Shown here: piece by piece, positions 3,179-37,165 of the stretch
Layout: every line of letters starts with the position of its first letter
Position numbering within the stretch: the stretch's first letter is position 1
Source: a virus
Length of the DNA stretch: 39,383 nucleotides
IMG/VR virus record: IMGVR_UViG_3300045988_059515
Coordinates: 1-39,383 of that record
Strand: one strand, 5' to 3'
Translations under genes and position numbers: made by a program
Notes under the pieces: model-generated
Seen by the model: the letters and a program-made list of their open reading frames with translations, nothing else
Databases searched by the model: none
What the model was told of the DNA's origin: nothing

Positions 3179-3195
3179 CAAAAACTGATGAGTAC

Positions 3196-3336
3196 ATGGA
3201 GTGGCTAGAGTACAAAGTGCAGGAGGCTAAAGATGAAATGAAAGAAGCCTTATCGCACCTAGACCACGACAGAGCTCAGATTAAATATGTAACTCTATTG
3301 AAAACCTATAACAAAGCTAAGGAGTTATCACTATGA
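3196..3336 (+). CDS. Small hypothetical ORF (46 aa), below the track cutoff
   Basis: Hand-translated MEWLEYKVQEAKDEMKEALSHLDHDRAQIKYVTLLKTYNKAKELSL. Its stop overlaps the nrdG ATG (ATGA). An internal AGGAGG at 3221 could instead drive a 32-aa product from ATG 3238. Confidence 0.3.
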   Translation: MEWLEYKVQEAKDEMKEALSHLDHDRAQIKYVTLLKTYNKAKELSL

Positions 3337-5619: not shown

Positions 5620-5636
5620 AAAGGAGACTGTACACC

Positions 5637-5816
5637 ATGCTATTAAAAATCTTATTTAAACTAGAAGCTATATCTATTGAGTTCCAAGCGTGGCTACGTT
5701 TGAAACAAAAGCAACAAATTGAAAAACTAATTGAGGAGAACGAGAGCGACATAGCGGAGTTGAAAACACAAAACAGCTACCTTAAAGGGCTCTTAAAGAA
5801 CTATGCTGGTATTTGA
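5637..5816 (+). CDS. Small hypothetical coiled-coil protein (59 aa), below the track cutoff
   Basis: ATG 8 nt after GAAAGGAGA. Hand-translated MLLKILFKLEAISIEFQAWLRLKQKQQIEKLIEENESDIAELKTQNSYLKGLLKNYAGI. The stop overlaps the DNA polymerase start by 14 nt. Confidence 0.5.
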   Translation: MLLKILFKLEAISIEFQAWLRLKQKQQIEKLIEENESDIAELKTQNSYLKGLLKNYAGI

Positions 5817-7677
5817 TATTGAAACAAACGGACTTCTTGACACTGTAACCAAAGTGCACTGTATGGTAGTCTACGACACTGAAACAGAAGAGTACTTTGA
5901 GTATAGACCTAATGAGATTGAGCAAGGTGTACAGAAACTTTTACAAGCCGACAAAATATGCGGACACAATGTTATAGCGTTTGACGTTCCATGCTTAGAG
6001 AAGCTCTATGGAGTTAAATTTGAGCATGAAAAGGTAATAGACACGCTAATACTAGCACGACTTGTCTACTCAAACATTAAAGATGTAGACATCGGACTAA
6101 TGAGAAAAGGAGTACTACCTAAGAAACTCTATGGACGCTATAGTTTACAAGCCTTTGGTTATCGCTTAGGAGAACTCAAAGGTACCTACAGCGAGGACAA
6201 TGAGGACGCATGGGCTTGCTTTAATGAGGAAATGTTAGCCTACAACAAGCAGGACGTAGTAGTTACCTATAAGCTATACAACAAACTTGTCGATAAGGGT
6301 TTTACAGAACACGCTTCTATGATTGAACACAAAGCTCAATGGTTAATGCAGAAGCAAGAACGAAATGGCTTCCCATTCGACAAACAAAAAGCAATGAAAC
6401 TTGAGGTAGACTTAAGGAAAGAACTAGAGCGTATCACTACTGAGCTCACTCAATATGTACCACCAATTCCTGACCGCATATTCATTCCTAAGAGAGACAA
6501 TAAGCGACTAGGGTATAAAGCTGGTGTTCCTGTACAGAAATACAAAGAGTTTAAAATCAATTCACGAGACCAACTCAAGTATATCTTAGGCACTCACTTT
6601 GGTTACAAATGGTTAGAAACAATGTTTGAAATCGAGACAGATGAGGACGGAGAGGAAATCAATAGAAAACTAAAGTTAGACGAAGAGAGCCTACAGGAAA
6701 TCATCAATGATCCTAAGGCAAGCGATGAGGTGCGTCATATTGCTAAGCTCTACAGCACTGCATTTATGTTGTCGAAACGATTAGGACAACTTGCAGATGG
6801 CAATCAAGCATGGCTCAAGCTCTTAGGAGATGACAATAGAATACATGGCAAGGTAAACCCTAATGGTGCAGTATCAGGGCGAGCTACTCATAGTAACCCT
6901 AATGTAGCTCAGGTACCTGCTATTGACAAACCCTATGGCTATCAATGTCGAGAGCTCTTTATGGCACCTAAGGGCTGGTATGAAGCTGGCATTGACTGCT
7001 CAGGTTTAGAATTACGTTGCTTAGCTCATTTCTTAGCACCATTCGACCACGGAGCATATGCACACGAGATACTCAATGGTGATATTCATACAGCTAACCA
7101 AATGAACGCAGGGCTTGAGACAAGAAACCAAGCAAAAACATTTATCTATGCGTTCCTCTATGGTGGCGGTAATGCAAAGATTGGTGAGATTGTCGGAGGA
7201 ACCGAAGAGGACGGCAAGAAACTCAAAGCTAAATTCTTAAAGAATACACCAGCAATCAAGAAGCTATCCAGTAGCATTAAGGATACCTTAGCTCCTTATG
7301 ATGTATCAGCAAGATGTCGCAGATATAAACGTAAGTGGCTAAAAGGACTTGACGGCAGAAAACTATATGTACGCTCATTGCATAGTGCATTGAACCTATT
7401 ATTGCAATCAGCAGGGGCTCTAATCTGTAAACGATGGACAACAAGAACAGAAGAGAGACTACAGGCACTGGGGCTTCAACATGACTGGGACGGAGATTAT
7501 TGTCTCATGGCATGGATCCACGATGAAATTCAAGTAGCTTGTAGAACTCAAGAGATAGCAGAAGTTGTCGTAAGAGAAGCTCAATTAGCAGTGCGAGACG
7601 TACAAGAAGAGTTTAAATTTAGAATTCAATTAGATACCGAGGGTAAAATCGGTAAGAACTGGGCGGAGTGTCATTAA
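5803..7677 (+). CDS. DNA polymerase, family A (T7 gp5-like)
   Basis: Exo I motif (FDIETNGL), motif B (RNQAKTFIYAFLYGGG), motif C (WIHDEIQV). Confidence 0.95.
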   Translation: MLVFDIETNGLLDTVTKVHCMVVYDTETEEYFEYRPNEIEQGVQKLLQADKICGHNVIAFDVPCLEKLYGVKFEHEKVIDTLILARLVYSNIKDVDIGLMRKGVLPKKLYGRYSLQAFGYRLGELKGTYSEDNEDAWACFNEEMLAYNKQDVVVTYKLYNKLVDKGFTEHASMIEHKAQWLMQKQERNGFPFDKQKAMKLEVDLRKELERITTELTQYVPPIPDRIFIPKRDNKRLGYKAGVPVQKYKEFKINSRDQLKYILGTHFGYKWLETMFEIETDEDGEEINRKLKLDEESLQEIINDPKASDEVRHIAKLYSTAFMLSKRLGQLADGNQAWLKLLGDDNRIHGKVNPNGAVSGRATHSNPNVAQVPAIDKPYGYQCRELFMAPKGWYEAGIDCSGLELRCLAHFLAPFDHGAYAHEILNGDIHTANQMNAGLETRNQAKTFIYAFLYGGGNAKIGEIVGGTEEDGKKLKAKFLKNTPAIKKLSSSIKDTLAPYDVSARCRRYKRKWLKGLDGRKLYVRSLHSALNLLLQSAGALICKRWTTRTEERLQALGLQHDWDGDYCLMAWIHDEIQVACRTQEIAEVVVREAQLAVRDVQEEFKFRIQLDTEGKIGKNWAECH

Positions 7678-9806: not shown

Positions 9807-11366
9807 ATGGCGACAAAGAAGCGTAAATCTACACAGCCTCAAGACCAAGGTATATCCGCTAAGGAGCTCTACACAAAACTAGAGAGTAAACGAGAGCCTT
9901 ATGTACAGCGAGCTATTAGTTGTGCAAAGCTAACTCTTCCTCATGTATTCCACGACAAGAATGACGATGGCAATACTAAATTCAATACACCTTATCAGTC
10001 TATTGGAGCACGAGGAGTAAACAACTTAACAAGCAAATTAGTACTTGCCCTATTTCCACCGAATGAGGGCTTTTTTAAATTGGGTTTGTCAACAGAAATG
10101 AAGCGACAACTCATCAACTCATCTCCTGAGGTTTACGAAGAGAAAACACAAGAGATTGAGCAAGCACTCATGAGATACGAACAGGCAAGCCTAAAGTATC
10201 TTGAAGAAATTCAATTCAGATCAACAGCTCAGGAAGCAAGCCGACACTTAATCATCACTGGCAATGGAGTAGTATTCCTACCGCCTGACAGAGATGGCAC
10301 TAAGTTTTATGACTTAAATCATTTTGTCGTACAGCGTGATGGGGTCGACACAGTAGTTACGTTGATAACTAAAGACGTCCTATTGAAACGCACATTGCCT
10401 CCTGAAGCATACAATCTAGTCCCTGACAAAAAGGACGATGAAGAAGTCGAAGTGTATACCAAATGCGACTTAGTAGATGACAACTATGAATGTTTTAGCG
10501 AAGTCGATGGTGTACTCATTAATGGTAGTGAGCAGTCATATCCTAAAGAGAAATTCCCTTATATTGTCTTAAGAATGACAAAAGGGAGTAACGAGGACTA
10601 TGGACGCTCAATGGTAGAAGAATACTTAGGTGACTTAACAAGCCTAGAGAAACTATCAAAAGCTCTAGTTACAATGGCTTCTATCAGTGCACGCACATTA
10701 TACCTAGTGAACCCTAATGGTATCACAAGACCTAAACTTTTACAGGACGCTCAAGAGGGCGACTTTGTAAGTGGTCGAATTGAAGATATTCAAGCACTAC
10801 AACTTAATAAATATCCTGATATGCAAACGACAAAAGCGACTGCTGACACTATTGAGCAACGCTTATCGTTTGCTTTTCTTTTGTCTAATGTCGTACAGCG
10901 GAACGCAGAACGAGTAACAGCAGAAGAAATTAGGACAGTCGCAAGTGAGCTTGAGGACACTCTTAGCGGTGTATATAGCATTTTAACTCAAGAGTTCCAG
11001 TTGCCACTTGTAAGACGAGTACTAGCAGTCTTAATGGCTAAAGGCGAACTAGCACAGCTTCCTAATGGCTTTATTGAGCCGACAATCACAACTGGTATGG
11101 AAGCCTTAGGTCGAGGACATGATTTTAATAAGTTCATGACTTTCATGAGTGTAGTAGGTCAAATGCCTGACGCTATGGGATACATGAAGATTAATCAATG
11201 GCTAGTAGCGATAGCGACAAGTTTAGGTATCGACACTACTGGACTTATTAAGACTGATGAAGAAATTCAACAAGAACAACAGCAAGCTATGGAAGCTCAA
11301 CAAGAGCAAGCCTTAGTAGAACAGGCTATGTCAAGCACTATGAATGAAAGCGAGGTAACACAATAG
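9807..11366 (+). CDS. Portal (head-tail connector, T7 gp8-like)
   Basis: YQSIGARGVNNLTSKLVLALFPP matches the conserved gp8 segment (TIGARGLNNLASKLMLALFP); size and synteny fit. Confidence 0.9.
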   Translation: MATKKRKSTQPQDQGISAKELYTKLESKREPYVQRAISCAKLTLPHVFHDKNDDGNTKFNTPYQSIGARGVNNLTSKLVLALFPPNEGFFKLGLSTEMKRQLINSSPEVYEEKTQEIEQALMRYEQASLKYLEEIQFRSTAQEASRHLIITGNGVVFLPPDRDGTKFYDLNHFVVQRDGVDTVVTLITKDVLLKRTLPPEAYNLVPDKKDDEEVEVYTKCDLVDDNYECFSEVDGVLINGSEQSYPKEKFPYIVLRMTKGSNEDYGRSMVEEYLGDLTSLEKLSKALVTMASISARTLYLVNPNGITRPKLLQDAQEGDFVSGRIEDIQALQLNKYPDMQTTKATADTIEQRLSFAFLLSNVVQRNAERVTAEEIRTVASELEDTLSGVYSILTQEFQLPLVRRVLAVLMAKGELAQLPNGFIEPTITTGMEALGRGHDFNKFMTFMSVVGQMPDAMGYMKINQWLVAIATSLGIDTTGLIKTDEEIQQEQQQAMEAQQEQALVEQAMSSTMNESEVTQ

Positions 11367-26483: not shown

Positions 26484-27030
26484 GAACTGGCTAAAGGTAA
26501 TCATACCACTTGTACTTGTGATTGTCGTAGGCTTCCTAGCCTACCACTTTAACACTCATGAGGTTCCTGAAGAGCCTACATACACACCAAAGGCTCCTAT
26601 CCATGTAGAACATGAAAGAAAACAGACGACTACCTTTGAGTACTTACCAAAGGCTGTAGATCCTATTACTGGAGTTCGTGAGGATACAGATGTACAATTC
26701 ACGACTAAACAACAGCCACTTGTAGTCAATGTTAATGGCAAGCGTCATGAGATAGCTACAGACAACGTAAAGGAAGAACATAAGCTAGACAATGGCAAGC
26801 TAGTAGTAACTGAAACACATGAAGCAGTACTAGACCTAAGAGTACCTGAACAGCCACGCTTTAAGAAAGGCATTTATGTCGAGACAGACTTTAACAATGA
26901 TAAGGCAATTACAGCAGGAGCTAGATTGTCGTACCAAACACCAAAGTTTGACGTAGACCTTAAGGCTGACCTTTATAGTCAAAAAGAACATACGAAAAGA
27001 ACAACACTAACCGCTACTGGTTGGTTCTAA
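26452..27030 (+). CDS. Membrane-anchored protein in the lysis cassette (possible spanin-like or lysis accessory protein)
   Basis: Single N-terminal TM (WLKVIIPLVLVIVVGFLAYHF) and a soluble C-terminal domain; overlaps the endolysin end; followed by a terminator. Confidence 0.5.
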   Translation: MSGVPNKHTIKNWLKVIIPLVLVIVVGFLAYHFNTHEVPEEPTYTPKAPIHVEHERKQTTTFEYLPKAVDPITGVREDTDVQFTTKQQPLVVNVNGKRHEIATDNVKEEHKLDNGKLVVTETHEAVLDLRVPEQPRFKKGIYVETDFNNDKAITAGARLSYQTPKFDVDLKADLYSQKEHTKRTTLTATGWF

Positions 27031-27035
27031 CCAAT

Positions 27036-27069
27036 AGCCCTCTATGGATATTCCGTAGGGGGCTTTTTT
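27036..27069 (+). terminator. Intrinsic terminator after the lysis cassette
   Basis: 12-bp stem AGCCCTCTATGG / CCGTAGGGGGCT (two G-U pairs), 5-nt loop, then TTTTTT. Confidence 0.8.
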
Positions 27070-27088
27070 ATATTCCTAAGGAGGCATA

Positions 27089-27595
27089 TTGAGACAAGCA
27101 CTAATTAAAGGGAGCAAGACAGATGAATGGTACACACCACTGGAAACAGTTAAGACAATGCTTAAAGTATTCCCACCTAAAAGAGGCGACCATATTTGTC
27201 TACCATTCGACACAAAAAAAAGCAATTTCTATAAAGTCATAACCAAAGATTATGATCCACAAGCCATCTATGGAATAAACGATTGGCTAACAAAAGATTA
27301 TGAATACGACTATCTAATCACTAACCCTCCGTACAGCAATAAAGATGAGATTATTGAACGCTGTATCGAGAGCGGTAAACCATGCGTATTAGTGCTACCT
27401 ATAGAAAGCCTAGGCGGTGTAAAGCGTCATGCACTCTATAAGAAAACTAATATAGCTATCTATGTACCAACTAAACGTATCAAGTTTATTAGTGAAGATG
27501 GTGAGGATAGTAAAGCACCTGCACACCACAGCATTGTAATGCTCATCAATGCAAAGCGTACAGAGATTATATTTGAGCATGAATTAGAACACTAA
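27089..27595 (+). CDS. DNA N6-adenine methyltransferase (small phage Dam-like)
   Basis: TTG start after AAGGAGG; DEWYTP near the N-terminus; catalytic NPPY motif (ITNPPYSNK). Confidence 0.75.
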   Translation: MRQALIKGSKTDEWYTPLETVKTMLKVFPPKRGDHICLPFDTKKSNFYKVITKDYDPQAIYGINDWLTKDYEYDYLITNPPYSNKDEIIERCIESGKPCVLVLPIESLGGVKRHALYKKTNIAIYVPTKRIKFISEDGEDSKAPAHHSIVMLINAKRTEIIFEHELEH

Positions 27596-27604
27596 GGAGA
27601 ACAT

Positions 27605-27802
27605 ATGGCGAAAGTAATTAGAACTCAAATGAAAGCTATCAGAGCAAAATGTTTAGATTGTTGCTGTAACGACACTAAAGAAGTAGACAACTGCACTGTA
27701 GAAGATTGTCCTTTATGGGACTACAGAATGGGAAAGACACCTAAAGGAGTTGTAAAGGTAAACAAGCTAGACCTTAATGCTACACGAAAGAAAGGAGAAT
27801 AA
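27605..27802 (+). CDS. Small Cys-rich (zinc-binding-like) protein
   Basis: CLDCCCNDTKEVDNCTVEDCPLWDYRMGK; SD AAGGAGA. Confidence 0.6.
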   Translation: MAKVIRTQMKAIRAKCLDCCCNDTKEVDNCTVEDCPLWDYRMGKTPKGVVKVNKLDLNATRKKGE

Positions 27803-28045
27803 ATGAATATTAAACCTGAGATTTTAGACCAATTAGCAGAGCTTGAAGTAGACGCACTACTTGAGGGCTTGCAAGACCCTGAAACAAGACTTAACCCATC
27901 ATTCCTAGAGAAAGTCCGTAGGTTCTTACGAGACAATAAATTGGAGACCACTCCTGAACTTGCTATTGAAGTAAAGAGAGAGACACATGAAATTCCAGTG
28001 TTTGACCCTCCGACACTCATGGACGAGCACTATGGTGATCACTAA
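27803..28045 (+). CDS. Terminase small subunit (gp18-like), by position
   Basis: 80 aa directly upstream of and overlapping (TAATG) the large terminase; T7 gp18 is a similar size. Confidence 0.6.
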   Translation: MNIKPEILDQLAELEVDALLEGLQDPETRLNPSFLEKVRRFLRDNKLETTPELAIEVKRETHEIPVFDPPTLMDEHYGDH

Positions 28046-29769
28046 TGGAGTGGACTGAAGAACAGATAGCTAAGGCTAAAGAGGACTTTAGGGTATTCAT
28101 ATACATGGTATGGAAGATGATTAGTCTACCTGATCCTACACCCATACAATACGACATAGCTCATACATTGCAGAACTTACCTAATGACCGCTTTATCATT
28201 GAGGGGTTCCGTGGTGTAGCTAAGTCATTTATCACTTGTGCATATGCTGTATGGACACTATGGAGAGACCCTCAGAAGAAAGTAGAGATTGTCTCCGCCT
28301 CTAAAGACCGAGCAGACGCTAACGCTATCTTTATCAAACGTATTATCTATACACTACCATTCCTAGCTCATCTAAAGGCTAGACCAGACCAACGAGATCA
28401 ACAGAACTTATTTGATGTCGGTCCTGCTGTTCCTGATATTTCTCCTAGTATTAAGTCAGTAGGTATTTCAGGACAGTTGACAGGTAGCCGTGCAGACTTA
28501 TTGATTGCCGATGACGTTGAAGTAGCTAACAATAGTGGCACTCAGACACAACGAGACAAGCTCAATGAAGCTGTTAAGGAGTTTGACGCTATCATTAAAC
28601 CTAAGGGACAAATCGTATATCTAGGTACTCCTCAGAACGAAATGAGCTTATACAATGAGTTGCAACAGCGTGGTTATCGTTGTCGCATATGGACTGTATT
28701 GTATCCTGAGAACTTATCTGAAAGAGAGTTCTATGGAGACCGCTTAGCAAAGATTATAGCTGACAAATACGACAATAACCCTGAGCTCTACGCTGGGAAG
28801 CCTACAGATCCTAGACGATTTGATGAGGAAGAAATTTATAAGCGTAGATTGTCTTATGGTAAAGCTGGCTTTGCACTACAGTTTATGCTTAACACTAACC
28901 TAAGCGACCAAGAGAAGTACCCATTGAAAGTACAGGACTTAATGATTGCTAACTTGTCGCTTGATGAAGCTAATCTCAAGTGGTACTGGAGCAATGACCG
29001 ACAACTCCGCATTAATGATTTACCTTGCGTAGCACTTAAGGGCGACTACTTTTATGAGCCTCAGGGACGCTCTAATGAAGTCTTTGAGTATACAGGTACA
29101 GTAATGGCAGTCGACCCATCAGGTAGAGGTAAAGATGAGACCTCTTATGCAGTCGTTAAGTATCTCAATGGCTACTTATTTGTCTTAGAAGTAGGTGGCA
29201 CTAGGGAGGGCTATAGTGATAGTACACTCCGACAACTGGCTAATAAAGCAAAAATCTATGGAGTTAATGAGATTGTCGTAGAGGGCAACTTTGGTGATGG
29301 TATGTTTTCACAGCTATTTAAACCAGTGCTAAATGACATACACCCTTGTAGCGTTACTGAAGTAAAGAACTATGCTCAGAAAGAGGCTCGTATCATTGAT
29401 ACCCTTGAGCCAGTCATGATGAGACATAAATTGATTATCCATAAGCAGGTTATCATTGATGACTACCAAGTCTATGAGAACGCTCCTGCTTACTCCTTGA
29501 TTTACCAAATGACACGCTTAAGCAGAGACAGAGGGGCACTGGCTCATGATGACCGCTTAGACGCTTTATGTATGGCAGTAGCATACTGGTTAGCAGTCAT
29601 GGATAGAGACGAAGAAATTGGTATGCAGGAACAGATAGAAGCTAAACTGGAGCAATGGCTTGATCCTGACAAAGGGGTATTCTACAGAGACGAAACAAAC
29701 CAAATGCGACCAATGGGACGCTCAGAAGCTAAAAGGATAAGCACCTATAATATACTTAAGAATTACTAA
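28045..29769 (+). CDS. Terminase large subunit (gp19-like)
   Basis: IIEGFRGVAKSF (T7 gp19-like Walker A region), LLIADDVE (Walker B); size 574 aa. Confidence 0.92.
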   Translation: MEWTEEQIAKAKEDFRVFIYMVWKMISLPDPTPIQYDIAHTLQNLPNDRFIIEGFRGVAKSFITCAYAVWTLWRDPQKKVEIVSASKDRADANAIFIKRIIYTLPFLAHLKARPDQRDQQNLFDVGPAVPDISPSIKSVGISGQLTGSRADLLIADDVEVANNSGTQTQRDKLNEAVKEFDAIIKPKGQIVYLGTPQNEMSLYNELQQRGYRCRIWTVLYPENLSEREFYGDRLAKIIADKYDNNPELYAGKPTDPRRFDEEEIYKRRLSYGKAGFALQFMLNTNLSDQEKYPLKVQDLMIANLSLDEANLKWYWSNDRQLRINDLPCVALKGDYFYEPQGRSNEVFEYTGTVMAVDPSGRGKDETSYAVVKYLNGYLFVLEVGGTREGYSDSTLRQLANKAKIYGVNEIVVEGNFGDGMFSQLFKPVLNDIHPCSVTEVKNYAQKEARIIDTLEPVMMRHKLIIHKQVIIDDYQVYENAPAYSLIYQMTRLSRDRGALAHDDRLDALCMAVAYWLAVMDRDEEIGMQEQIEAKLEQWLDPDKGVFYRDETNQMRPMGRSEAKRISTYNILKNY

Positions 29770-29774
29770 CCACT

Positions 29775-29812
29775 AACCCTAAGGAAGTCAGAACGATTTC
29801 TTTAGGGTTTTT
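29775..29812 (+). terminator. Intrinsic terminator after terminase
   Basis: 12-bp stem AACCCTAAGGAA / TTTCTTTAGGGTT (one G-U pair), 11-nt loop, then TTTTT. Confidence 0.75.
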
Positions 29813-29965
29813 GTGGCTATTAAGAGTGTACAGAGGTTTATTTTGTCGCCTAGAGATTGTCTAAGGTATTTATACCTAAGGAGTGACACAAACCTCTACA
29901 CACGCACAACAAAAATCGCCATAGAGGCTGATGGTTTATTAATAGACAGAAATAAATAAGAGTAC

Positions 29966-30044
29966 TATAGGCACTCTTTAGTCCCTCTATAAGCACTCTT
30001 AAGTCCCCCTCTTAAGTACCTCTTATAGCACTCTAAAGTCCTCC
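29966..30044. repeat. Three tandem ~21-24-nt repeats, TATA(G/A)GCACTCT(T/A)(T/A)AGTCC(C)CTC
   Basis: Read directly: tataggcactctttagtccctc, tataagcactcttaagtccccctc and tatagcactctaaagtcctcc. They carry CTTTAG/CTTAAG/CTAAAG cores. Confidence 0.8.
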
Positions 30045-30083
30045 TATGTATAACTTATTGTAATACTCTTATGATTATTTCTC

Positions 30084-30105
30084 AATGTACCCACGAGATA
30101 GAAGA
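30084..30105 (+). promoter_or_regulatory. Phage RNAP promoter, copy 2 (AATGTACCCACGAGATAGAAGA), upstream of int
   Basis: 21/22 identical to the other two copies. The predicted initial transcript forms AGAAGA-GTA-TCTTCT (30100..30114). Confidence 0.75.
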
Positions 30106-30120
30106 GTATCTTCTAGCTCT

Positions 30121-30138
30121 CTTTAGTTTTAACTAAAG
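30121..30138. promoter_or_regulatory. Palindrome CTTTAG-TTTTAA-CTAAAG; its 15-nt core TTTAGTTTTAACTAA repeats at 30259..30273
   Basis: Read directly; same CTTTAG/CTAAAG half-sites as the tandem repeats. Confidence 0.6.
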
Positions 30139-30377
30139 TCTATCTATTAGACAACTTGAGACATCTATGTCAATGGTTTCTCAAGAAAACTAATAGGCTT
30201 ATTTAGAATTTTAATTTAGTTATTAACTCTTAAGACAGCAATAAGAACTTATAGATTTTTTAGTTTTAACTAACGAAGTTTAGCAAACTAAAGGAACTCT
30301 ATAAGAATACTATTAGATACTCTTAATTACTTCCGAACCATACACCTTTAATGATATACTTAAGGAGTAGTAAAGTA

Positions 30378-30398
30378 CTCTTTAGGTATTCTAAAGAG
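30378..30398 (+). promoter_or_regulatory. Perfect 8-bp hairpin CTCTTTAG-GTATT-CTAAAGAG that sequesters the int Shine-Dalgarno
   Basis: The 3' arm contains AAGAG of the SD AAGAGG, which lies 6 nt before ATG 30408; coordinates were checked against the ORF-track translation. Confidence 0.6.
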
Positions 30399-30407
30399 GT
30401 GAACTTA

Positions 30408-31352
30408 ATGACATATTTAGAATACATTAATGAATGGTTAAAGTATAAAGAAAGTGAGTACTCTTATAGCACCTTAAGAACCTATAGAGCACTCATTAAG
30501 AAGCACTTTATACCATTCTTTAGAGACACAAAAGTAGAGGACTTAACACGACTACAGTTACAGCATTTCATCAATACACTAAAGACATCACAAAAGGTCT
30601 GTATAGCACTGCTTAAGAGAACCCTAAAGGAGCTCTACTACGATGAGCTAACCCCTAAGGACTTCTCTACACAGCTAAGGAAGCCACCAAAGGCACACGT
30701 TACAAGATCTAAACAAGCACTCACAAGAGAGCAAGTAGCCCAGCTATTCGACTACCTGAAGCCTAACTACTGGCACTACTTTATTCGACTACTGTTTAAC
30801 TCAGGACTACGAATAGGGGAAGCACTAGCTTTACAGTGGTGCGATGTCCTTTGGTACACTAAAGAACACACTTTAGTTCCTCAAAGGGAATACCACCAGT
30901 GCTCTTATGTAGTACTAAAGATAACAAAGACATTTGATGAACATATGGGAGCTCTACACGAGCCTAAGACAGCGACAAGTATAAGAGACGTAATAGTTAC
31001 TGATAGAGACACTATAGAGCTCTTATTTCACCAGTGGTCAGCTGTAGGCTTCCCAAAGAACTCTTATGTAGCCCAATCGAAACGCTGTAGTGATCAACCA
31101 GTATCAAGAGTAGCCATAAAGAATATCTTTAAGAAAGCTACAGAGGCACTAGGACTGCCATTTCTCTTAACTCCTCATCATGCTAGACTCAATTACACAA
31201 GCCACAGTTTAGCCTCAGGAGTTAGCGAAAAGAACCTACAAGCCCAACTAGGGCACAGCTCAACTAATCTAATTCGTAGTGTGTATGGGAAAGCCATTGG
31301 CAATCGTTTAGAGGAACTGATAGAACACAAAAGTATCTATTACTTCCGATAA
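30408..31352 (+). CDS. int: Tyrosine recombinase/integrase
   Basis: SAM-like N-terminal domain (YSTLRTYRALIKKHFIPFF), box I LLFNSGLRIGEALAL, HHAR...LGHSS...Y catalytic signature. ATG 30408 has an SD; the track start at 30351 has none. Confidence 0.88.
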   Translation: MTYLEYINEWLKYKESEYSYSTLRTYRALIKKHFIPFFRDTKVEDLTRLQLQHFINTLKTSQKVCIALLKRTLKELYYDELTPKDFSTQLRKPPKAHVTRSKQALTREQVAQLFDYLKPNYWHYFIRLLFNSGLRIGEALALQWCDVLWYTKEHTLVPQREYHQCSYVVLKITKTFDEHMGALHEPKTATSIRDVIVTDRDTIELLFHQWSAVGFPKNSYVAQSKRCSDQPVSRVAIKNIFKKATEALGLPFLLTPHHARLNYTSHSLASGVSEKNLQAQLGHSSTNLIRSVYGKAIGNRLEELIEHKSIYYFR

Positions 31353-32408
31353 CGATAATATAACTGTAAGAAGCCTAAAGGGAAAAATACTACAAAATTT
31401 TATGAGCCCATATATACTATTAAGATTAGAGCCACAGTCCCCCATGCCCCTGCCATGTCGTCGCTTCGCTCACGCTCAGCACTCCGCAGGTTCATTCAGT
31501 GTTACTCTCAGTACCTAGCATAGTCTCACTTTGCACGCCCACATTCACATCATGAGTTACCCTAAGTACGTTGGTGGGGCGGTTAAGTTTGAGTATACGA
31601 GCACTTACAATTTAGAACATCACGACGTGCAATTTGTACACCACAGAAGCACATTAGCACTCTTTAGTCCGCCTACAGTAGACATAAGTGTACAAATCGC
31701 TCAGCAATGCTTGTTGCCCGCCTATGGTTCACTCCGTTAGTTCGACCTATGGTCTCACTGTCGTTCACAGTAGTACCACAATAAGAACACTCACGGACTA
31801 CCTCAGAAGCTACCACAGCTCACCACTGGAAGCCACAGTACTCTTGTCGAGTACGTCCTGCATTATCACAGGTCTTACGTTCGACACAAATAATAACGAC
31901 AACAAAGTCATTCCCATGTATAACCACAGCTCACCAATGATTACTTTAGCACACTAAAGTATATCCAATTGTTATCCACAGGAATGACTTGGGTGTGCAC
32001 AAGCACCTCTATTGATTGAGGGCTTCTTGACGAGCCCTAGCGAGGAGCTTGCACACACCACCGAATGTACGACAACTGTTCGCCTAGTAGCAATCGGTAG
32101 TGAGCTCTACAGTGCACACAGTAGTGTTCCGTTTAGGACAGCGAGTACTCAACACTGGCGACAACTAGAAAAGCCAAATGGTGCACAACGTAGTCCTCAT
32201 GAGGGTACTAACAGCAATGCTCAAGTATAGCTTCAGTGTACACGTTGCACACAGTTGGTACTACTATAGTGCTGTTAAAGAATACATAAAGTAAACCAGT
32301 GGTAACACGTCAGACTGACAACTCACCACTTATTTGTCGACGTATCATACATGATCCACATCACGACAACCATAATATTAATTATTGACAAGCAATAAGC
32401 AATAAAAA
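31353..32408 (+). other. ORF-poor, hairpin- and repeat-dense segment with inverted C>G skew. Candidate large structured ncRNA and/or attP or origin-type DNA element; strand uncertain
   Basis: No SD-preceded ORF. Repeated modules have conserved hairpin architecture (details in findings). It lies downstream of the promoter at 30084 and ends at a terminator. Confidence 0.35.
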
Positions 32409-32453
32409 AGAGGCTCTACAGATTTCATAAAGATTTCTGTAAAGCCTCTTTTT
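32404..32453. terminator. Bidirectional intrinsic terminator
   Basis: 13/14-bp stem AGAGGCTCTACAGA / TCTGTAAAGCCTCT flanked by AAAAAA upstream and TTTTT downstream. It sits 8 nt from the stop of the minus-strand RHH gene. Confidence 0.85.
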
Positions 32454-32461
32454 GTGTGCTC

Positions 32462-32707
32462 TTATCGTTGGTTACGCATTATAAAATTTTCAGGACTGAC
32501 CTTTACTTTGTCGGTACCCTCTTGAGGGATAACAGTAGATTTTGTAGCCACCTCATGCACCATGAACTCACGCAAAGCCTTGGATACATTACCATCAGGG
32601 CAAACATTAGCGAAAGCGTCGCGAAGCTCGTGAGGTAGTCTAATAGTAAGAGTACTGTCAGCGTCAAGCGTTGCATAATAATATAATAATTGATAATTCT
32701 TTTCCAT
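32462..32707 (-). CDS. Ribbon-helix-helix (CopG/Arc/MetJ-type) DNA-binding protein; candidate repressor or regulator
   Basis: LTIRLPHELRDAFANVC...NVSKALREFM fits a beta-strand/helix/helix RHH pattern. SD AAAGGTGG lies 6 nt before the ATG. It is the only convincing minus-strand gene and is divergent from the early promoters. Confidence 0.8.
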   Translation of the reverse strand: MEKNYQLLYYYATLDADSTLTIRLPHELRDAFANVCPDGNVSKALREFMVHEVATKSTVIPQEGTDKVKVSPENFIMRNQR

Positions 32708-32728
32708 AATAAGCCACCTTTCAAAATG

Positions 32729-32753
32729 ATACTATATAAGATACCTATAGTAT
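32729..32753. promoter_or_regulatory. Operator-like palindrome ATACTATA-N9-TATAGTAT
   Basis: Perfect 8-bp inverted arms overlapping the -10 of the minus-strand promoter for the RHH gene. Confidence 0.55.
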
Positions 32754-32778
32754 AACATAAGTATAAACAAATTGTAAA
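32749..32778 (-). promoter_or_regulatory. Sigma70-like promoter for the RHH gene (TTTACA-18-TATACT on the minus strand)
   Basis: Read on the reverse complement; 41 nt upstream of the RHH ATG. Confidence 0.5.
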
Positions 32779-32821
32779 TACAAAAAGATAAAAGATTTAC
32801 GAAATGTTTATACATTATGTA

Positions 32822-32851
32822 TTGACACATTGTAATGACATAGTGTATAAT
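32822..32851 (+). promoter_or_regulatory. Sigma70-consensus early promoter (TTGACA-18-TATAAT)
   Basis: Perfect -35 and -10 hexamers in the AT-rich leader of the early gene block. Confidence 0.7.
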
Positions 32852-32884
32852 GTAATTAAAGATAAGGGCAGAAGCCCTAAAAAA

Positions 32885-32908
32885 TTTAACTATAATGTAC
32901 ATACAAAG
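32885..32908 (+). promoter_or_regulatory. Conserved 24-nt early element, copy 1 (TTTAACTATAATGTACATACAAAG; contains TATAAT)
   Basis: 23/24 identical to 33564..33587; both precede early gene blocks. Confidence 0.6.
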
Positions 32909-32929
32909 TGTACATACAGGAGGTAAACA

Positions 32930-33271
32930 ATGGACACTATTCAAATTACTGTAAATTTCACATTTGACAATCTTTATAGCGTACTCAGTGAAAGAGCTTG
33001 TGACACTTTGCGAGTAATTGCAAGCCATCACAAAATCAATAAATTTATGGAACTAGCTAGAGAGCTAGGCTATAGAGAGCTATCTATAAAGGAATGGGAA
33101 AGCATTTTAGATAATAATATCACAACTAGAGATAAAGCGGAAGCAGTGAGCAAAGTCTTAACACTATCCGACTTTGAAGCTCTACTATTAACGGAAGAAA
33201 CAGAGCTTTATTATAACTTAGGTATTCCACTAGATGAAAACTACGAACCATTACCATATGAGGAGGCATAA
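32930..33271 (+). CDS. Acidic early protein (113 aa) in the gene 0.3 position
   Basis: First early gene; strong SD (CAGGAGG); about 22 D/E versus about 10 K/R; shares an FTFD(N/D)L N-terminal motif with the next gene. Confidence 0.7.
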   Translation: MDTIQITVNFTFDNLYSVLSERACDTLRVIASHHKINKFMELARELGYRELSIKEWESILDNNITTRDKAEAVSKVLTLSDFEALLLTEETELYYNLGIPLDENYEPLPYEEA

Positions 33272-33563: not shown

Positions 33564-33587
33564 TTTAACTATCATGTACATACAAAG
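33564..33587 (+). promoter_or_regulatory. Conserved 24-nt early element, copy 2 (TTTAACTATCATGTACATACAAAG), with TTACAG 18 nt upstream of TATCAT
   Basis: 23/24 identical to copy 1. It is followed by the 5'-UTR hairpin CCCCTC-ATAA-GAGGGG (33601..33616) and an SD. Confidence 0.55.
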
Positions 33588-33631
33588 CGTAATTACAAGT
33601 CCCCTCATAAGAGGGGCGAAAGGAGCACACT

Positions 33632-34519: not shown

Positions 34520-34564
34520 AAATACACCTATTGAAACCTTGATTTGTCGATAGGTGTATTTTTT
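34520..34564 (+). terminator. Intrinsic terminator between the early genes and the RNAP gene
   Basis: 12-bp perfect stem AAATACACCTAT / ATAGGTGTATTT, 18-nt loop, T-run. Confidence 0.75.
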
Positions 34565-34645
34565 ATACCCTTTTTGCACCGCTCAGGGCGGTCAAAACGT
34601 ATGCAGGCGGTAAGCCAAAGGCAAAAACCGAGGAGGTCAAGAGAT

Positions 34646-37165
34646 ATGAACACGAACACAATAGAGCAACAAATAGAGCTAGAAAAGTATTACACAAACC
34701 TAGCTCAAGAGGCTTTCAAGAAAAGACTGGAGCAAGCAAGAAACCAAGGGCGGATAACAAGCCAACCCTTAGGCAGTGGCTTGAAAAAGCTCTTTGTCGA
34801 AGCCCTAGCGACAAACATAGGAGCATGGATAGATGAGAACACCAAGCCAAAGAGAGGTGTGGGCAAGAAGTATAGAGAGCTTCTAAAGGCAATGCTTGAG
34901 GCATTCGGTAAGGAAGCTCTAGTGCTCAATATTTGTGCTACAGTACTTGAAAAGGCTATTAATGAAACCTTAGCGACAGACCATAAGGCTAGTGTATCAA
35001 GTTGTGGCTACCAAGTAGGCAACAGTCTATACTACAATGCAAAAACTGAAGCGTACCTAAAGCAAGACGGCACAGGAACTCAAGTAAACAGGATACAAGA
35101 GGGCTTAGACAAAAGAACCCTCATGTATCAAAAGACCTCACATATTAAAGGGGTCATGAAGAAAAATAAGTTTGAATGGGTTAAGTGGGAAAAAGGAGTA
35201 ATAGTAAACCTAGGACTAGACATATTGTATATCCTTATTCAATCTACAGACCTAATAACTACAAGCCAAGCAAATGATAGAACACTATACCTAGAGCCAT
35301 CTCAAGCTCTATTGGATACATATAGATACAATGCAGAGTTCATCAGTAAATTTATTGTCGACCGCACACCAACGATCGTGAAGCCTAAACCATGGACAGA
35401 CATGAGCCAAGGCGGTTATTACGGGGTAATGCGGAAGAGACTACATTTTATGCGTATCAGTCATATTGTCGGTAAGACAAAGGTAGTGAAGAGCTACATT
35501 AAGAAAATACAGGACGTAGACTTGAGCAAGATATATAGTGCAGTTAATGCAATTCAAGAGACACCTTATCGTATCAACAAAAGTATGTATGAGGTAGTCA
35601 ATGCAATCTTTGAGCAAGGCGGAGGGATAGCTGGTATAGCAGACTTTGAGCCTCACGCACCTGAGCCAGTAAGAAACACCTTTGAGACAAAGCAAGACTT
35701 TGGGAAGCGGTTCCATGAGTGGCTAGAGATTGAAATTGCAAGACGTAGTAAAGCCCTAAGAGCTATGAGACTGTTCAGATACGCTAAGGAGTTTAAAGAG
35801 TATGACAAAATATACTTCCCTTGCAACATCGACTTTAGAGGACGTATCTATCCTATACCACTCTTTAACCATCAAGGGGACGACTTTATGAAGTCTTTAA
35901 TTGAATACGCAGAGCCTGTACCGCTCAAGGATAGCCAAGATATAGAGCTCTTTTACTGGCAAGGAGCAAACCTATGGGGCAACGACAAAGTATCTCATAG
36001 CGAGCAAGTGGAATGGGTGAAAGCTCACCACTCTAATATTGTCGACAGTGCAAAGGCACCTTTGGACTACCTATGGTGGACAGACGCAGATGAGCCTTTA
36101 CAGTTCCTAGCGTGGGCTATGGAATACGTCAAGTCTCTTGAGTACTACCAAGAGCACAAGACATATGAGGGCTATAGTTGCCCTTTAGTCATTGCCTATG
36201 ATGGTACTTGCTCAGGGCTACAGCACTACTCAGCAATGCTAAGAGATGAAGTAGGCGGAAGTGCAGTGAACCTAATCGACCACGAGAGACCAGCCGACAT
36301 ATATCAACAAGTAGCAGACAAAGTACTTAAGATTGTCGAAAAGGACGCAACAAGCGGAACACTTGATGAAGTCGAAAAGGAAGCAGTAGGAGGCGGACAA
36401 AGGGTACACTTCGGAACACGTTCTATGGCTCAAGCATGGTTAGCTCATGGAGTTAATCGTAAAGTAGTCAAACGGAACGTCATGACGCTTGCCTATGGTA
36501 GCGGACAATATGGCTTCCAAGAGCAAATCCTTGAGGACACCTGCAAAGGCAACCCACATTTCAAGAGATTTGAAAAGCCTTGTGCAAAGTACATGGCTAA
36601 GCTGGTATGGCAAGAGGTGCAGACAACAGTAGTTAGTGCTACAGAGGGCATGAAGTATCTTAAAGCACTAGCTAAAGTGCTCACTAAGCATGGACTACCA
36701 GTGAATTGGTGGACACCTTTAGGACTACCAGTACAGCAACAGTATCTAAAGTTAGTGCAAAAGAGCTTCCGTACACGCTTCGGAGATATGGTGCGGTGGC
36801 ATGGGTACTATCAAGACGTAGCAGATGATGAAGCACTGGACGCTAATGGGCAGAAGAATGGAATAGCACCTAACTTTATCCATAGCCTAGACAGTACTCA
36901 CTTAATGATGGTAGTCAATGAAGCTGGCTTAAAGAACTATACGACAATTCATGACAGCTTCGGTACATCACTAGGAGAAGCTAGACACATACAAAAAGTT
37001 ATCCGTGAGCAACTCTATAAGTTATATACAGAGCACTCACCACTTGAAGAGTTTAGACAATATGTACAAGAGATGACTGGAGAGGACTTATCAGATATTG
37101 TCGAACCGCCTAAAGGCAATTTAAACCTAAGAAACATACTAAAAAGCACATTTATTTTTCACTAA
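34646..37165 (+). CDS. Single-subunit DNA-directed RNA polymerase (T7 gp1-like)
   Basis: AYDGTCSGLQHYSAM, VMTLAYGS, PNFIHSLDS and IHDSFGT match T7 RNAP motifs A, B and C. ATG 34646 follows GAGGAGG, so the track start at 34544 runs through the terminator and is an artifact. Confidence 0.95.
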   Translation: MNTNTIEQQIELEKYYTNLAQEAFKKRLEQARNQGRITSQPLGSGLKKLFVEALATNIGAWIDENTKPKRGVGKKYRELLKAMLEAFGKEALVLNICATVLEKAINETLATDHKASVSSCGYQVGNSLYYNAKTEAYLKQDGTGTQVNRIQEGLDKRTLMYQKTSHIKGVMKKNKFEWVKWEKGVIVNLGLDILYILIQSTDLITTSQANDRTLYLEPSQALLDTYRYNAEFISKFIVDRTPTIVKPKPWTDMSQGGYYGVMRKRLHFMRISHIVGKTKVVKSYIKKIQDVDLSKIYSAVNAIQETPYRINKSMYEVVNAIFEQGGGIAGIADFEPHAPEPVRNTFETKQDFGKRFHEWLEIEIARRSKALRAMRLFRYAKEFKEYDKIYFPCNIDFRGRIYPIPLFNHQGDDFMKSLIEYAEPVPLKDSQDIELFYWQGANLWGNDKVSHSEQVEWVKAHHSNIVDSAKAPLDYLWWTDADEPLQFLAWAMEYVKSLEYYQEHKTYEGYSCPLVIAYDGTCSGLQHYSAMLRDEVGGSAVNLIDHERPADIYQQVADKVLKIVEKDATSGTLDEVEKEAVGGGQRVHFGTRSMAQAWLAHGVNRKVVKRNVMTLAYGSGQYGFQEQILEDTCKGNPHFKRFEKPCAKYMAKLVWQEVQTTVVSATEGMKYLKALAKVLTKHGLPVNWWTPLGLPVQQQYLKLVQKSFRTRFGDMVRWHGYYQDVADDEALDANGQKNGIAPNFIHSLDSTHLMMVVNEAGLKNYTTIHDSFGTSLGEARHIQKVIREQLYKLYTEHSPLEEFRQYVQEMTGEDLSDIVEPPKGNLNLRNILKSTFIFH

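Follow-up and report, generated by a model that had tools for sequence, protein, structure and literature searches.

Organization of the integrase locus

The DNA analyzed here (the window; 39,383 nucleotides, IMG/VR record IMGVR_UViG_3300045988_059515) is a circular assembly of a T7-like phage with 39,242 bp of unique sequence. A contig identical to the window shows a T7-type gene order with nearly all genes on one strand, and encodes the single-subunit RNA polymerase (RNAP) domains PF00940/PF14700 together with domains of the T7 primase-helicase, endonuclease I, T7 SSB, T7 tail, and T7-type terminase. With its own single-subunit RNAP and T7-type replication, structural, and packaging genes, the phage belongs to the T7-like class (Autographivirales type). 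The RNAP (gene at 34544–37165) shares 34% identity with its counterpart in Vibrio phage ICP3, and the phage infects Veillonella, with V. atypica as the most likely host species. The integrase gene (int) is located between the large terminase gene terL (28045–29769) and the early region with the RNAP gene; by analogy with T7, int could sit at the right virion end, behind a phiOR-like promoter, as readily as at the left end named in the first-pass annotation.

The int ORF as listed spans 30351–31352 on the plus strand, and translation probably begins with the ATG at 30408, with the Shine–Dalgarno (SD) sequence AAAGAGGTG positioned 6–7 nt upstream, giving a product of 314 aa (30408–31352) as also predicted by gene callers on identical contigs. 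Int exceeds the gathering scores of Pfam Phage_integrase (PF00589; 57.2 bits, cut-off 27.1) and Phage_int_SAM_3 (PF14659; 50 bits, cut-off 22.6), matches PHROG 1 'integrase' (E = 6.7e-43), and contains by motif inspection the complete R-K-H-x-x-R-H/W-Y set (Arg135, Lys187, His257-x-x-Arg260, His283, and Tyr293 in the 314-aa numbering), which places it in the tyrosine recombinase family. A full-length integrase with an intact R...HxxR...Y signature between the terminase and the early promoters, as proposed in the first-pass annotation, is thus borne out by the Pfam and PHROG matches and the motifs, and the protein probably catalyses strand exchange. Its architecture is of the simple type, with a SAM_3 core-binding and a catalytic domain; no arm-binding family was found among the Pfam matches of the 314-aa protein, and a lambda-type (heterobivalent) integrase was rejected on the basis of this two-domain composition. 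The nearest profiles are XerA and the integron integrase.

Contigs in 74 blocks of the collection encode exactly this Int protein, whose 90% cluster comprises 438 members. The int cassette is found at one and the same genomic position in three clades, among which Int identity falls as low as 68% and Int is intact and conserved throughout; this contradicts the recent acquisition of int suggested from its lack of the hexamer TTGTCG. None of the 52 plus-strand copies of this motif falls within int, as had been noted, and one minus-strand copy does (30973); the gap in int is unremarkable, the largest motif-free gap lying elsewhere and the probability of a maximum gap at least as large as that observed being 0.66, and the hexamer argument carries no statistical weight.

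Region upstream of int

The terL gene is followed by a terminator-like hairpin with a T-run (29775–29814, plus strand; arms 29775–29789 and 29795–29809, then TTTTT), which is kept in relatives. Further downstream are an array of three ~22-nt repeats of the ATAGGCACTCTTTAGTCCCTCT type (29952–30045, plus strand; three repeat families), of which a fourth copy is found at 31653–31674 and whose number differs among the clades; we take these repeats to resemble the short repeats flanking T7 concatemer junctions. A promoter-like 22-mer of the phage-RNAP type points into int (30084–30105, plus strand). The 22-mer, AATGTACCCACGAGATAGAGGA, is present exactly at 9278 and 37171 and with 1 mismatch at 30084 (chance expectation, 0); these three are the only copies of the candidate phage promoter found in the genome, and the copy at 30084 is kept in the 81% clade with two changes. 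The element ATTACTTCCGA occurs in just two exact copies in the window, one in the attP arm described below and the other at 30326–30336 (plus strand), 82 nt before int begins and in an unchanged position in three clades; it may be a half-site bound by Int (or by a host recombinase) for autoregulation.

The int leader (30343–30400, plus strand) can form alternative hairpins that bury the SD sequence (30392–30400). The 8-bp hairpin CTCTTTAG/CTAAAGAG (30378–30398) is present, and three clades retain its stem (30378–85/30391–98), one A-to-G substitution yielding a G·U pair. The fold predicted for 30340–30440 has a minimum free energy (MFE) of −28.5 kcal/mol (z = −4.9), with 0 of 200 shuffled sequences being as stable; the MFE structure pairs partly otherwise than the 8-bp hairpin, yet also buries the int SD. 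The promoter copy at 30084 and the SD-burying hairpin noted in the first-pass annotation are thus present as sequence features, and both may well have regulatory roles. A lysogeny decision fits awkwardly with transcription of int solely by the phage RNAP, which drives the lytic genes as well.

Attachment site and integrated copies

The attP core (31339–31373, plus strand), delimited by junction boundaries, the empty attB, and spacer covariation, is composed of the left arm ATTACTTCCGATAA (31339–31352), whose last 3 nt form the int stop codon, the overlap CGATAAT (31353–31359), and the degenerate right arm ATAACTGTAAGAAG (31360–31373), owing to which attP itself is a poor palindrome. Both junctions with bacterial DNA map to the 21-bp core (31339–31359; 14-bp arm and 7-bp overlap), which overlaps the int stop codon. 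At int-side junctions, homology to the window stops at 31359/31362, and in eleven contigs bacterial genes for PAP2, VanW, a Xer-like recombinase, LexA, panCD, dapAB, and asd begin ~10 nt past the int stop codon. At the opposite junction, homology begins at 31339, and in eight contigs other bacterial genes are found beyond the minus-strand gene and the 1.1-kb region described in the following section. An empty site was identified in V. atypica KON ATCC 17744, in which bases 1–1799 match the int-side flank and bases 1776–7256 match the other flank, the overlap being the core. The products of an attP × attB recombination with a short common core (21 bp) are therefore all recovered, that is, attL, attR, attP, and empty attB. 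The attL site consists of the host arm, the overlap, and the degenerate phage arm; attR is sequence-identical to attB, and the host site is therefore regenerated.

Across three phage clades, the 7-bp spacer of attP and that of the host site vary together. The spacer of the window (CGATAAT) is that of the V. atypica attB; the clade with 81% Int identity has CGATATA both in attP (two contigs) and in the junctions (five contigs), corresponding to the V. parvula-type attB; and the 68% clade has TTTATCG, with the insertion in the opposite orientation. Integration into a tRNA or tmRNA gene, the usual target among temperate T7-like phages, was rejected, since the attB palindrome is intergenic and has a terminator hairpin on either side; the window contains no tRNA or tmRNA genes.

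These junctions with host DNA, the empty attB, and the host-matched spacers, together with the poor palindrome of attP and its degenerate right arm, make it exceedingly improbable that the recombinase only resolves phage dimers or concatemers in a Cre/loxP-like manner, as might be supposed from a simple Xer/Cre-size enzyme without an arm-binding domain and from a lox-like site with inverted arms and a 7-bp spacer. Resolution as the sole function is rejected by the host junctions and empty attB, and an extra resolvase role beside integration is possible.

Integrated copies form the main assembly path in contigs of 80–300 kb from many independent samples, and therefore most host cells in those samples carry the prophage. 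Both junction types and the free form were found in the same samples, and free, circularly assembled contigs of ~39–41 kb are numerous. Tandem scaffolds may be assembly artefacts, and immunity or stable inheritance is beyond what metagenomic contigs can prove. The first-pass annotation had proposed a search for integrated copies permuted within 29.8–32.5 kb, and had named the absence of prophage copies as the outcome that would speak against a lysogeny-type module in an integrase-bearing T7-type phage; such copies exist, with both junctions at 31339–31359, and one of them is contained in a 303-kb contig of the NCBI assembly GCA_003605975.1. The module is accordingly supported by the integrated copies and the empty attB. 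We consider, with a probability of about 85%, that this region serves a temperate T7-like Veillonella phage with a real prophage state as its integration and lysogeny cassette. Integrase-bearing T7-like phages are a kind already known, within which the Veillonella phage is a variant.

Minus-strand gene and early promoter

Between attP and the minus-strand gene lies a conserved non-coding region of ~1–1.1 kb (31374–32397), C-rich on the plus strand, which comes to lie at the attL end of the prophage. Comparison between clades reveals near-identity blocks and non-3n indels, with no conserved ORF in the region; neither an Rfam match nor a match in phage records was obtained for it, and its RNA-fold z-scores are −1.5 (plus strand) and −2.4 (minus strand). 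It is followed by a bidirectional terminator-like hairpin (A-run, stem, and T-run; 32398–32460; 25-nt arms, 84% complementary) at the 3′ end of the gene at 32462–32707, the sole minus-strand gene called on an identical contig. As described in the first-pass annotation, this gene is divergent from a consensus early sigma70 promoter, TTGACA-18-TATAAT (32822–32851, plus strand; 12/12 match), which sits inside a 20-nt inverted repeat (32808–32850). The minus-strand gene has its own promoter-like site (32778–32749; 10/12, with TG), whose −10/+1 region is overlapped by the perfect 8-bp inverted repeat ATACTATA-N9-TATAGTAT (32729–32753), a candidate operator. The pairing of int with this gene holds in the phage map, where the two are neighbours separated by ~1.1 kb of conserved non-coding DNA; in the prophage they are ~39 kb apart at opposite ends, because attP lies between them.

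The 81-aa product is a candidate ribbon-helix-helix (RHH) regulator, putatively a prophage repressor or autoregulator. It contains the motif TLTIRLPHELRDAF...SKALREFM, and the AF2 monomer model predicts an extended segment (residues 13–24) and helices at 25–34 and 40–55 (pLDDT, 87–92 over residues 11–50). Like Arc/Mnt (P22) and CopG, the protein is small, has a β-strand-helix-turn-helix pattern (TLTIRLP-HELRDAFANVC-PDGNVS-KALREFMVHEV), aligns in register with CopG and Arc, and has a gene that diverges from early promoters accompanied by operator-like palindromes; unlike these regulators, it has additional N- and C-terminal elements, and its DNA binding is putative. Pfam gave no match for any of 17 members, and no significant PDB or Foldseek match to the protein was found. 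A remote homolog matches RHH_1 below threshold (E = 0.019), and the PDB profile matches are also sub-threshold (pRN1 ORF56, 0.092; NikR, 0.12; DinJ, 1.4). The RHH fold is plausible, and of the earlier Arc/CopG-type identification the minus-strand gene stands, with the RHH assignment being sub-threshold only. No CI-type repressor was recognised in the phage, and no excisionase candidate was identified.

The numerous free circular contigs, the apparent dependence of int on a phage-RNAP promoter, and the lack of a recognised CI-type repressor would also suit an essentially lytic phage whose integrated copies are rare by-products of transient integration without true lysogeny, for which T7-like cyanophages provide a precedent (PMC8776855). 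We regard this as improbable, given that integrated copies are the main path of long contigs in many samples and occur in an NCBI assembly, and that a divergent repressor-like gene is accompanied by operator-like palindromes over both promoters.

Host site and neighbouring recombinase

The attB site is a perfect 35-bp palindrome of the form 14-7-14, ATTACTTCCGATAA-CGATAAT-TTATCGGAAGTAAT. It occurs once per contig in Veillonella, Megasphaera, Selenomonas, Anaerovibrio, and others, is conserved across Negativicutes, and the same site sequence is also kept across several phyla. A gene for a Cre/Xer-like recombinase is found near the palindrome in 57 of 120 loci; a host recombinase gene adjoins the site or is 2.3 kb away. 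The host recombinase (~320–340 aa) is of the simple tyrosine type, with full-length matches to Cre (E about 1e-5) and XerD, and scores under every NCBIfam Xer cut-off; its gene usually has the inverted-repeat site (11–14-bp arms, 7-bp spacer) 20–80 nt upstream. The palindrome would be the target of the adjacently encoded enzyme. This module resembles Cre/loxP (P1), XerS/difSL, and XerH/difH in consisting of a simple recombinase and a putatively cognate inverted-repeat site, and differs from them in its perfectly palindromic arms, its scores below the NCBIfam Xer cut-offs, and the retention of the site across several phyla. The arm of the host site presumably resembles those of loxP and SloxP.

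In all 34 Negativicutes loci, local GC skew to the left of the site exceeds that to its right (plus/minus in 27 of the 34), a pattern absent from the loci of other phyla, and flanking host genes are directed toward attB in 16 of 20 cases. From this local skew and gene orientation in partly syntenic loci, attB in Negativicutes is probably located at the replication terminus. Because a Cre/Xer-like gene adjoins the palindrome and the GC skew switches there, the palindrome is a candidate single-recombinase dif-type site.

In Legionella, integration of the element LME-1 exposed an unrecognised single-recombinase dif acted on by XerL (PMC9765430). By this precedent, a host Cre/Xer-like recombinase could wholly or partly integrate the Veillonella phage, with Int serving as an accessory that binds the degenerate phage arm, gives directionality or excision, or resolves multimers. 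The left arm and overlap of attP exactly mimic the host site, attR regenerates it, as in dif-exploiting elements, and the host recombinase gene is at or close to the site; moreover, Int and the host recombinase are distant (31% over 78 aa), and would need to read the same 14-bp arm. We judge this unlikely, since an intact Int is kept in three clades with its stop codon in the attP arm, a classical int–attP linkage, known IMEX elements are without their own recombinase, and the T7-like cyanophage S-TIP37 requires the phage int to integrate (PMC8776855). The IMEX elements (CTXphi/TLCphi with XerCD; LME-1 with XerL) share with the Veillonella phage an att site that mimics the host recombinase target and the regeneration of the host site; their target is the host terminus site, whereas the Veillonella site is a putative dif. 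Membership of the phage among IMEX elements was rejected for its intact, conserved int, though site mimicry and regeneration hold.

Proposed integration and comparison with other T7-like phages

Through the 21-bp identity in attP (31339–31359), whose 14-bp arm encodes the final codons of int along with its stop, the circular phage genome recombines with the palindromic chromosomal attB to give attL and attR. In the temperate-phage reading preferred here, the simple Xer/Cre-size phage recombinase would exchange strands within the 7-bp overlap, whose asymmetry would fix both prophage orientation and host-species specificity. The phage RNAP would transcribe int from the promoter copy at 30084, translation would be throttled by the SD-burying leader, and Int would perhaps autoregulate through the arm half-site at 30326. 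In the prophage, the divergent RHH-like protein would repress both the consensus early promoter and the promoter of its own gene.

The cyanophages P-SSP7 and S-TIP37 are likewise podoviruses of the T7 type; they encode an RNAP and a tyrosine integrase of their own and have attP directly downstream of int. Attachment sites of HTVC019P-type pelagiphages lie in tRNA genes. Site-specific integration has been demonstrated for T7-like cyanophages, whose attB is within a tRNA-Leu gene and whose integration is rare and transient without stable lysogens (PMC8776855). The Veillonella phage differs in that its attB is a palindrome lying between genes, long contigs are dominated by integrated copies, its host is a human-associated diderm Firmicute, and its int follows a phage-type promoter in the interval from the terminase to the early promoters. 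The HTVC019P-type pelagiphages (SAR11 podoviruses) are also T7-like, carry integrases, and integrate into host genomes (bioRxiv 10.1101/410191); they have marine hosts, and are not reported to be linked to the target site of a recombinase.

The cassette thus represents a T7 relative of the human commensal Veillonella with a prophage state. We further put forward, as a tentative proposal that is less likely than not to be true, that attB (ACTTCCGATAA-N7-TTATCGGAAGT) is the hitherto undescribed chromosome-dimer-resolution (dif-type) site of Negativicutes served by a single, adjacently encoded Cre/Xer-like recombinase, that the phage has evolved an attP which mimics this site and regenerates it upon insertion, and that Int reads the arm of the host recombinase or cooperates with the host enzyme. 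If so, the IMEX elements that exploit dif would have in this phage their first counterpart with an integrase, and the att site of the phage would disclose how a whole bacterial class resolves its chromosome dimers.

Integrated copies of the phage genome and the attachment site

The first and last 141 bases of the window are identical, and the window is therefore a circular assembly whose unique sequence is 39,242 bases long; a Logan contig of 39,272 bp is identical to it. Its plus strand codes for a single-subunit RNA polymerase (RNAP; 34544–37165), with ~34% identity to the enzymes of T7-like phages such as Vibrio phage ICP3, and for a T7-type primase-helicase, endonuclease I, SSB, tail proteins, and large terminase. 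T7-type phages are textbook examples of strictly lytic phages. No tRNA genes were detected in the window by ARAGORN, and no Rfam family reached its gathering score over the whole window.

The exact sequence of the 314-residue tyrosine integrase (Int), and then that of the 81-residue protein encoded on the minus strand, were looked up in public assemblies for their flanking genes. Free or circular contigs show int followed by a 1.1-kb region, the 81-residue protein gene, and the RNAP gene (L002–L004 and L006; L numbers denote contigs or genomic loci). In integrated contigs, including a 116-kb scaffold and a 100-kb SPAdes contig, bacterial genes start ~75 nt past the int stop codon (L001, L005, L007–L010, L153, L155, L156, L158, and L159), and code for PAP2, VanW, a Xer-like recombinase, LysM, LexA, panC, panD, dapA, asd, and dapB. 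The other junction, retrieved with the 81-residue protein, has its gene and the 1.1-kb region joined to another set of bacterial genes, as in a 303-kb contig (L011) of NCBI assembly GCA_003605975.1. Integrated copies joined at a site between 29.8 and 32.5 kb, as proposed by the first-pass annotation, thus exist, in support of its main interpretation. BLAST places the boundaries at 31359/31362 where int adjoins the host, and at 31339 at the opposite junction.

Junction alignments define a common core, ATTACTTCCGATAACGATAAT, at 31339–31359. The reconstructed attB, ATTACTTCCGATAA-CGATAAT-TTATCGGAAGTAAT, is a perfect 14-bp inverted repeat with a 7-bp spacer, and is placed between two terminator hairpins; a tRNA or tmRNA gene as attB was ruled out, as ARAGORN found none. 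Veillonella atypica KON ATCC 17744 (L127) contains the exact attB as an empty site, and its flanks match both prophage flanks, overlapping by the core. In the phage attP (31339–31373), the left arm is identical to the host arm, with its final three bases forming the int stop codon, and is followed by the spacer (31353–31359) and the right arm ATAACTGTAAGAAG, a degenerate copy. Because the left arm both equals the host arm and contains the stop codon, all Ints of the group end with ...YYFR-stop. After integration, attL carries the degenerate arm and attR is base-for-base identical to attB, so that the host palindrome is regenerated.

The spacer varies among three phage clades, matching a host spacer in each. 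That of the window clade, CGATAAT, matches V. atypica (L127 and L089), and CGATATA, found in attP (L145 and L147) and junctions (L146 and L148–L151) of the clade with 81% Int identity, is shared with V. parvula-type genomes. At 68% Int identity, the third clade has TTTATCG, and its int adjoins the opposite host flank (L141–L144). As the arms are palindromic, only the asymmetric spacer can set the orientation, and the flipped prophage of this last clade is as a lox/FRT-type mechanism would predict. Strand exchange would take place within the 7-bp spacer and would be catalyzed by the phage Int. Altogether, we assign a probability of about 0.85 to a functional integration module with attP at 31339–31373.

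Two scaffolds of 82–90 kb (ERZ28635317 scaffold_335, comprising L002 and L010, and ERZ28635086 scaffold_214, comprising L152 and L156) run from host DNA through attR, phage, and attP into a second phage copy; the two int copies are separated by one genome length, and the phage copies are identical. Such scaffolds either represent tandem double prophages, made plausible by the identity of attR and attB, or arose when the assembler went round the phage circle a second time, with which the identity of both phage copies is consistent.

The integrase gene and its leader

All features from which the first-pass annotation had proposed a lysogeny module were found in the window by ORF, domain, promoter, and fold checks. 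The int ORF extends over 30351–31352 in the ORF list, and the ATG at 30408 has a proper Shine-Dalgarno (SD) sequence; this start gives the 314-residue protein, which gene callers also give on identical contigs. The integrase is intact, as had been described, with Phage_integrase and Phage_int_SAM_3 above the Pfam gathering scores, a match to PHROG 1 'integrase' (6.7e-43), and the residues R135, K187, H257-x-x-R260, H283, and Y293. An arm-binding domain is absent. Among curated profiles, the protein comes closest to XerA, integron integrase, and XerD, each scoring far under its cut-off, and its best phage relatives, with <30% identity, are integrases from phages and satellites of Firmicutes. 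At 90% identity, two integrase clusters contain 438 and 514 members. The DNA of the module was unmatched among 50,697 deposited phage records in megablast and blastn searches.

The 22-mer noted earlier as a phage-type promoter occurs exactly at 9278 and 37171 and with one mismatch at 30084, 300 nt upstream of int, with none expected by chance. Since a scan of the circular or concatemeric genome found no sigma70-like promoter upstream of int on its strand, the phage RNAP probably transcribes int. T7 has a phage promoter close to each end, phiOL on the left and, past the terminase gene, phiOR on the right. Given this placement, the 30084 copy may be an ancestral promoter of the junction region, with int having been inserted into its transcript.

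The 8-bp hairpin burying the SD sequence of int is present as first described. The minimum-energy fold of the leader has a partly alternative pairing and likewise buries the SD sequence (−28.5 kcal/mol; z = −4.9), and the 8-bp stem is retained in the three clades, with an A-to-G change still pairing as G·U. Such an SD-sequestering leader would keep int translation low. In addition, the arm sequence ATTACTTCCGA has a second exact copy at 30326–30336, 82 nt upstream of the int ATG and conserved in the three clades; these two copies are the only ones in the genome. The upstream copy may be an autoregulatory binding site for Int or the host recombinase. For the regulatory details of the module, we consider the chances to be roughly even.

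TTGTCG copies and the age of the integrase gene

The hexamer TTGTCG is over-represented 8-fold genome-wide, with 103 copies (52 on the plus and 51 on the minus strand) against 13 ± 3.7 expected, for example at 792, 1497, and 4601/4605, and in a cluster of seven copies in 31844–32513. It is not enriched in the Veillonella host flanks (4 copies in 18.8 kb). T7 primase recognition sites contain GTC, as does TTGTCG. A recent acquisition of int, weakly suggested at first from a lack of the hexamer in the gene, does not hold up. A minus-strand copy lies inside int, and the gap over the gene is as expected; the longest TTGTCG-free stretch is not over int and instead occupies 26926–28680, and a gap at least as long arose in 66% of simulations with random placement (P = 0.66). 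Furthermore, the position of the int–attP cassette is unchanged in clades with Int identity as low as 68%, and the cassette is hence not recent. The lower G+C content and reversed GC skew of the 30–32 kb region, together with the Firmicute-type affinities of Int, are compatible with an older horizontal origin.

The divergent gene and the non-coding region

The ORF for the 81-residue protein (32462–32707) is the sole minus-strand gene called and faces a perfect TTGACA-18-TATAAT promoter at 32822–32851, both in agreement with the first-pass annotation. Its own promoter-like site (32778–32749) is overlapped by a perfect palindrome, ATACTATA-N9-TATAGTAT. The protein has a ribbon-helix-helix (RHH) sequence pattern, and its AlphaFold model consists of an extended segment followed by two helices (pLDDT, 87–92 for residues 11–50). 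A profile search of 1.8 billion proteins yielded a small family, in which one member has a sub-threshold match to RHH_1 and whose profile gives sub-threshold matches to the RHH proteins ORF56 of pRN1 and NikR. Alignment with CopG and Arc by hhalign is in register, with a probability of <2%. Foldseek searches of the PDB with two AF2 models gave nothing significant, and Pfam searches with 17 family members gave no match. From the position of the gene and the operator-like palindromes, a role as prophage repressor would be no more than a reasonable guess.

A 34-nt repeat, TTTAACTATAATGTACATACAAAGTGTACATACA, is present at 32885–32918 and 33564–33597 (the second copy being 88% identical), preceding two early genes. 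Within the repeat are a TATAAT and TGTACATACA as a direct repeat, and it may act as a second early promoter or operator. In the clade with 81% Int identity, an extra, moron-like ORF for a 64-residue protein with two transmembrane segments is located between the non-coding region and the candidate RHH gene (L147, 2128–2322; L148, 10380–10574 on the minus strand; also L149 and L150), and is absent from the window.

Between attP and the 81-residue protein gene lie ~1,020 bp (31374–32397), which are at the attL end in the prophage and are C-rich on the plus strand. Equivalents of the region are present in L006, L011, L016, L145, and L147. A coding function was rejected, as no ORF is conserved among relatives; clades share long, near-identical stretches, and indel lengths are not divisible by three. 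The region has no match in Rfam or, by megablast and blastn, in the phage records, and a sensitive Rfam search of 29770–32930 gave just two chance-level matches. A large structured RNA is unsupported, because the RNA-stability z-scores are only −1.5 and −2.4. The left end of T7 has ~900 bp of non-coding DNA, and by analogy 31374–32397 may be where the terminal repeat, sequences for DNA entry, and packaging signals are located; int would then be the terminal gene of the right end instead of lying at the left.

Solely inside this ~1-kb non-coding region, a 22-nt palindromic mini-insert (core GTTCGTTCTACGAAC) occurs in 0–3 copies at positions that differ between genomes (L002, 11282–11296; L016, three copies in 10562–10968; also L015, L017, L020, L149, and L150), with no copy in the window. 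It appears to behave like a tiny mobile hairpin element.

The host palindrome and the nearby Cre/Xer-like recombinase

One GTDB genome per species was scanned for ACTTCCGATAA-N7-TTATCGGAAGT, and at least 120 loci (L021–L140) were obtained, with ~0.03 matches expected by chance for this 11-7-11 palindrome. None of the listed loci contains a lysogen with this Int. Among the matches listed, the palindrome is present once per contig in Veillonella, Megasphaera, Selenomonas, Anaerovibrio, Mitsuokella, Allisonella, Anaeroglobus, and Anaerospora, and also in scattered Alphaproteobacteria, Actinomycetes, Stenotrophomonas, Bacteroidota, and Pelagibacteraceae. Its occurrence extends to unrelated phyla (e.g., Stenotrophomonas, L026; Ensifer, L043; Saccharothrix, L053; and Pelagibacteraceae, L060), with some genomes having a G+C content of 72%.

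A tyrosine recombinase of one family (316–340 residues) is encoded nearby in 57 of the 120 listed loci (at least 120 in all), usually starting 20–80 nt downstream of the palindrome, and in V. parvula and V. atypica 2.3 kb from it. This host recombinase gives full-length alignments with Cre (E, about 1e-5), XerD, and XerA, falls under every NCBIfam Xer cut-off, and is only remotely related to the phage Int. Judged from sequence, the palindrome and the Cre/Xer-like recombinase are an unusually conserved module across phyla.

Local GC skew, for which at least 2 kb on both sides of the site was required, is higher left than right in all 34 Negativicutes loci, many of them syntenic, and changes from positive to negative in 27; the 20 loci of other phyla lack this pattern. 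Transcription of 16 of the 20 genes flanking the site in V. atypica runs toward it. The Negativicutes site would thus look like a terminus-located, single-recombinase dif-type site, for which XerS/difSL, XerH/difH, and XerL are precedents. The assignment of attB as the dif-type site of Negativicutes is tentative, and we rate it somewhat below an even chance. A literature search found no paper describing this site, its arm sequence, or dif for Negativicutes.

Comparison with known systems and significance

Integrase-bearing T7-like phages as such are already known. In the cyanophages P-SSP7 and S-TIP37, which belong to the best-studied group of them, attP is located downstream of int and matches a tRNA-Leu gene, and integration needs int and attP, being rare and transient without stable lysogens (PMC8776855); HTVC019P-type pelagiphages are reported to integrate as well (bioRxiv 10.1101/410191). 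Passing mentions exist of a 'T7-like prophage' in dental plaque and of a Veillonella-associated prophage (PMC11371653), and an oral phage contig is reported to have Veillonella DNA at both ends (bioRxiv 10.1101/633727). The module itself is described in none of these works. In contrast to the integrase-bearing T7-like phages, the host here belongs to the Negativicutes of the human microbiota, the prophage is the main assembled form in many samples, and the int stop codon is built into the attP arm; attB is a lox/dif-like palindrome regenerated on insertion, unlike the tRNA gene used by P-SSP7 and S-TIP37. Mechanistically, the closest parallels are found in IMEX elements that exploit dif, among them LME-1, through whose att site XerL/dif was recognised in Legionella (PMC9765430), although IMEX elements are without their own integrase, whereas this phage has Int.

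Widespread T7-like phages infecting a major commensal of the human mouth and gut are thus seen as full prophages, with the attachment site mapped to the base and an overlap that tracks the host species. They offer a tractable system for how a phage with its own RNAP can be silenced, and the 7-bp overlap provides a host-range marker for Veillonella phages. The compact Int/att pair with its lox-like architecture could serve as a genetic tool in Negativicutes. The attachment site also leads to an unrecognised, widely conserved Cre/Xer-like recombinase-plus-site module, which may be the dif system of Negativicutes.
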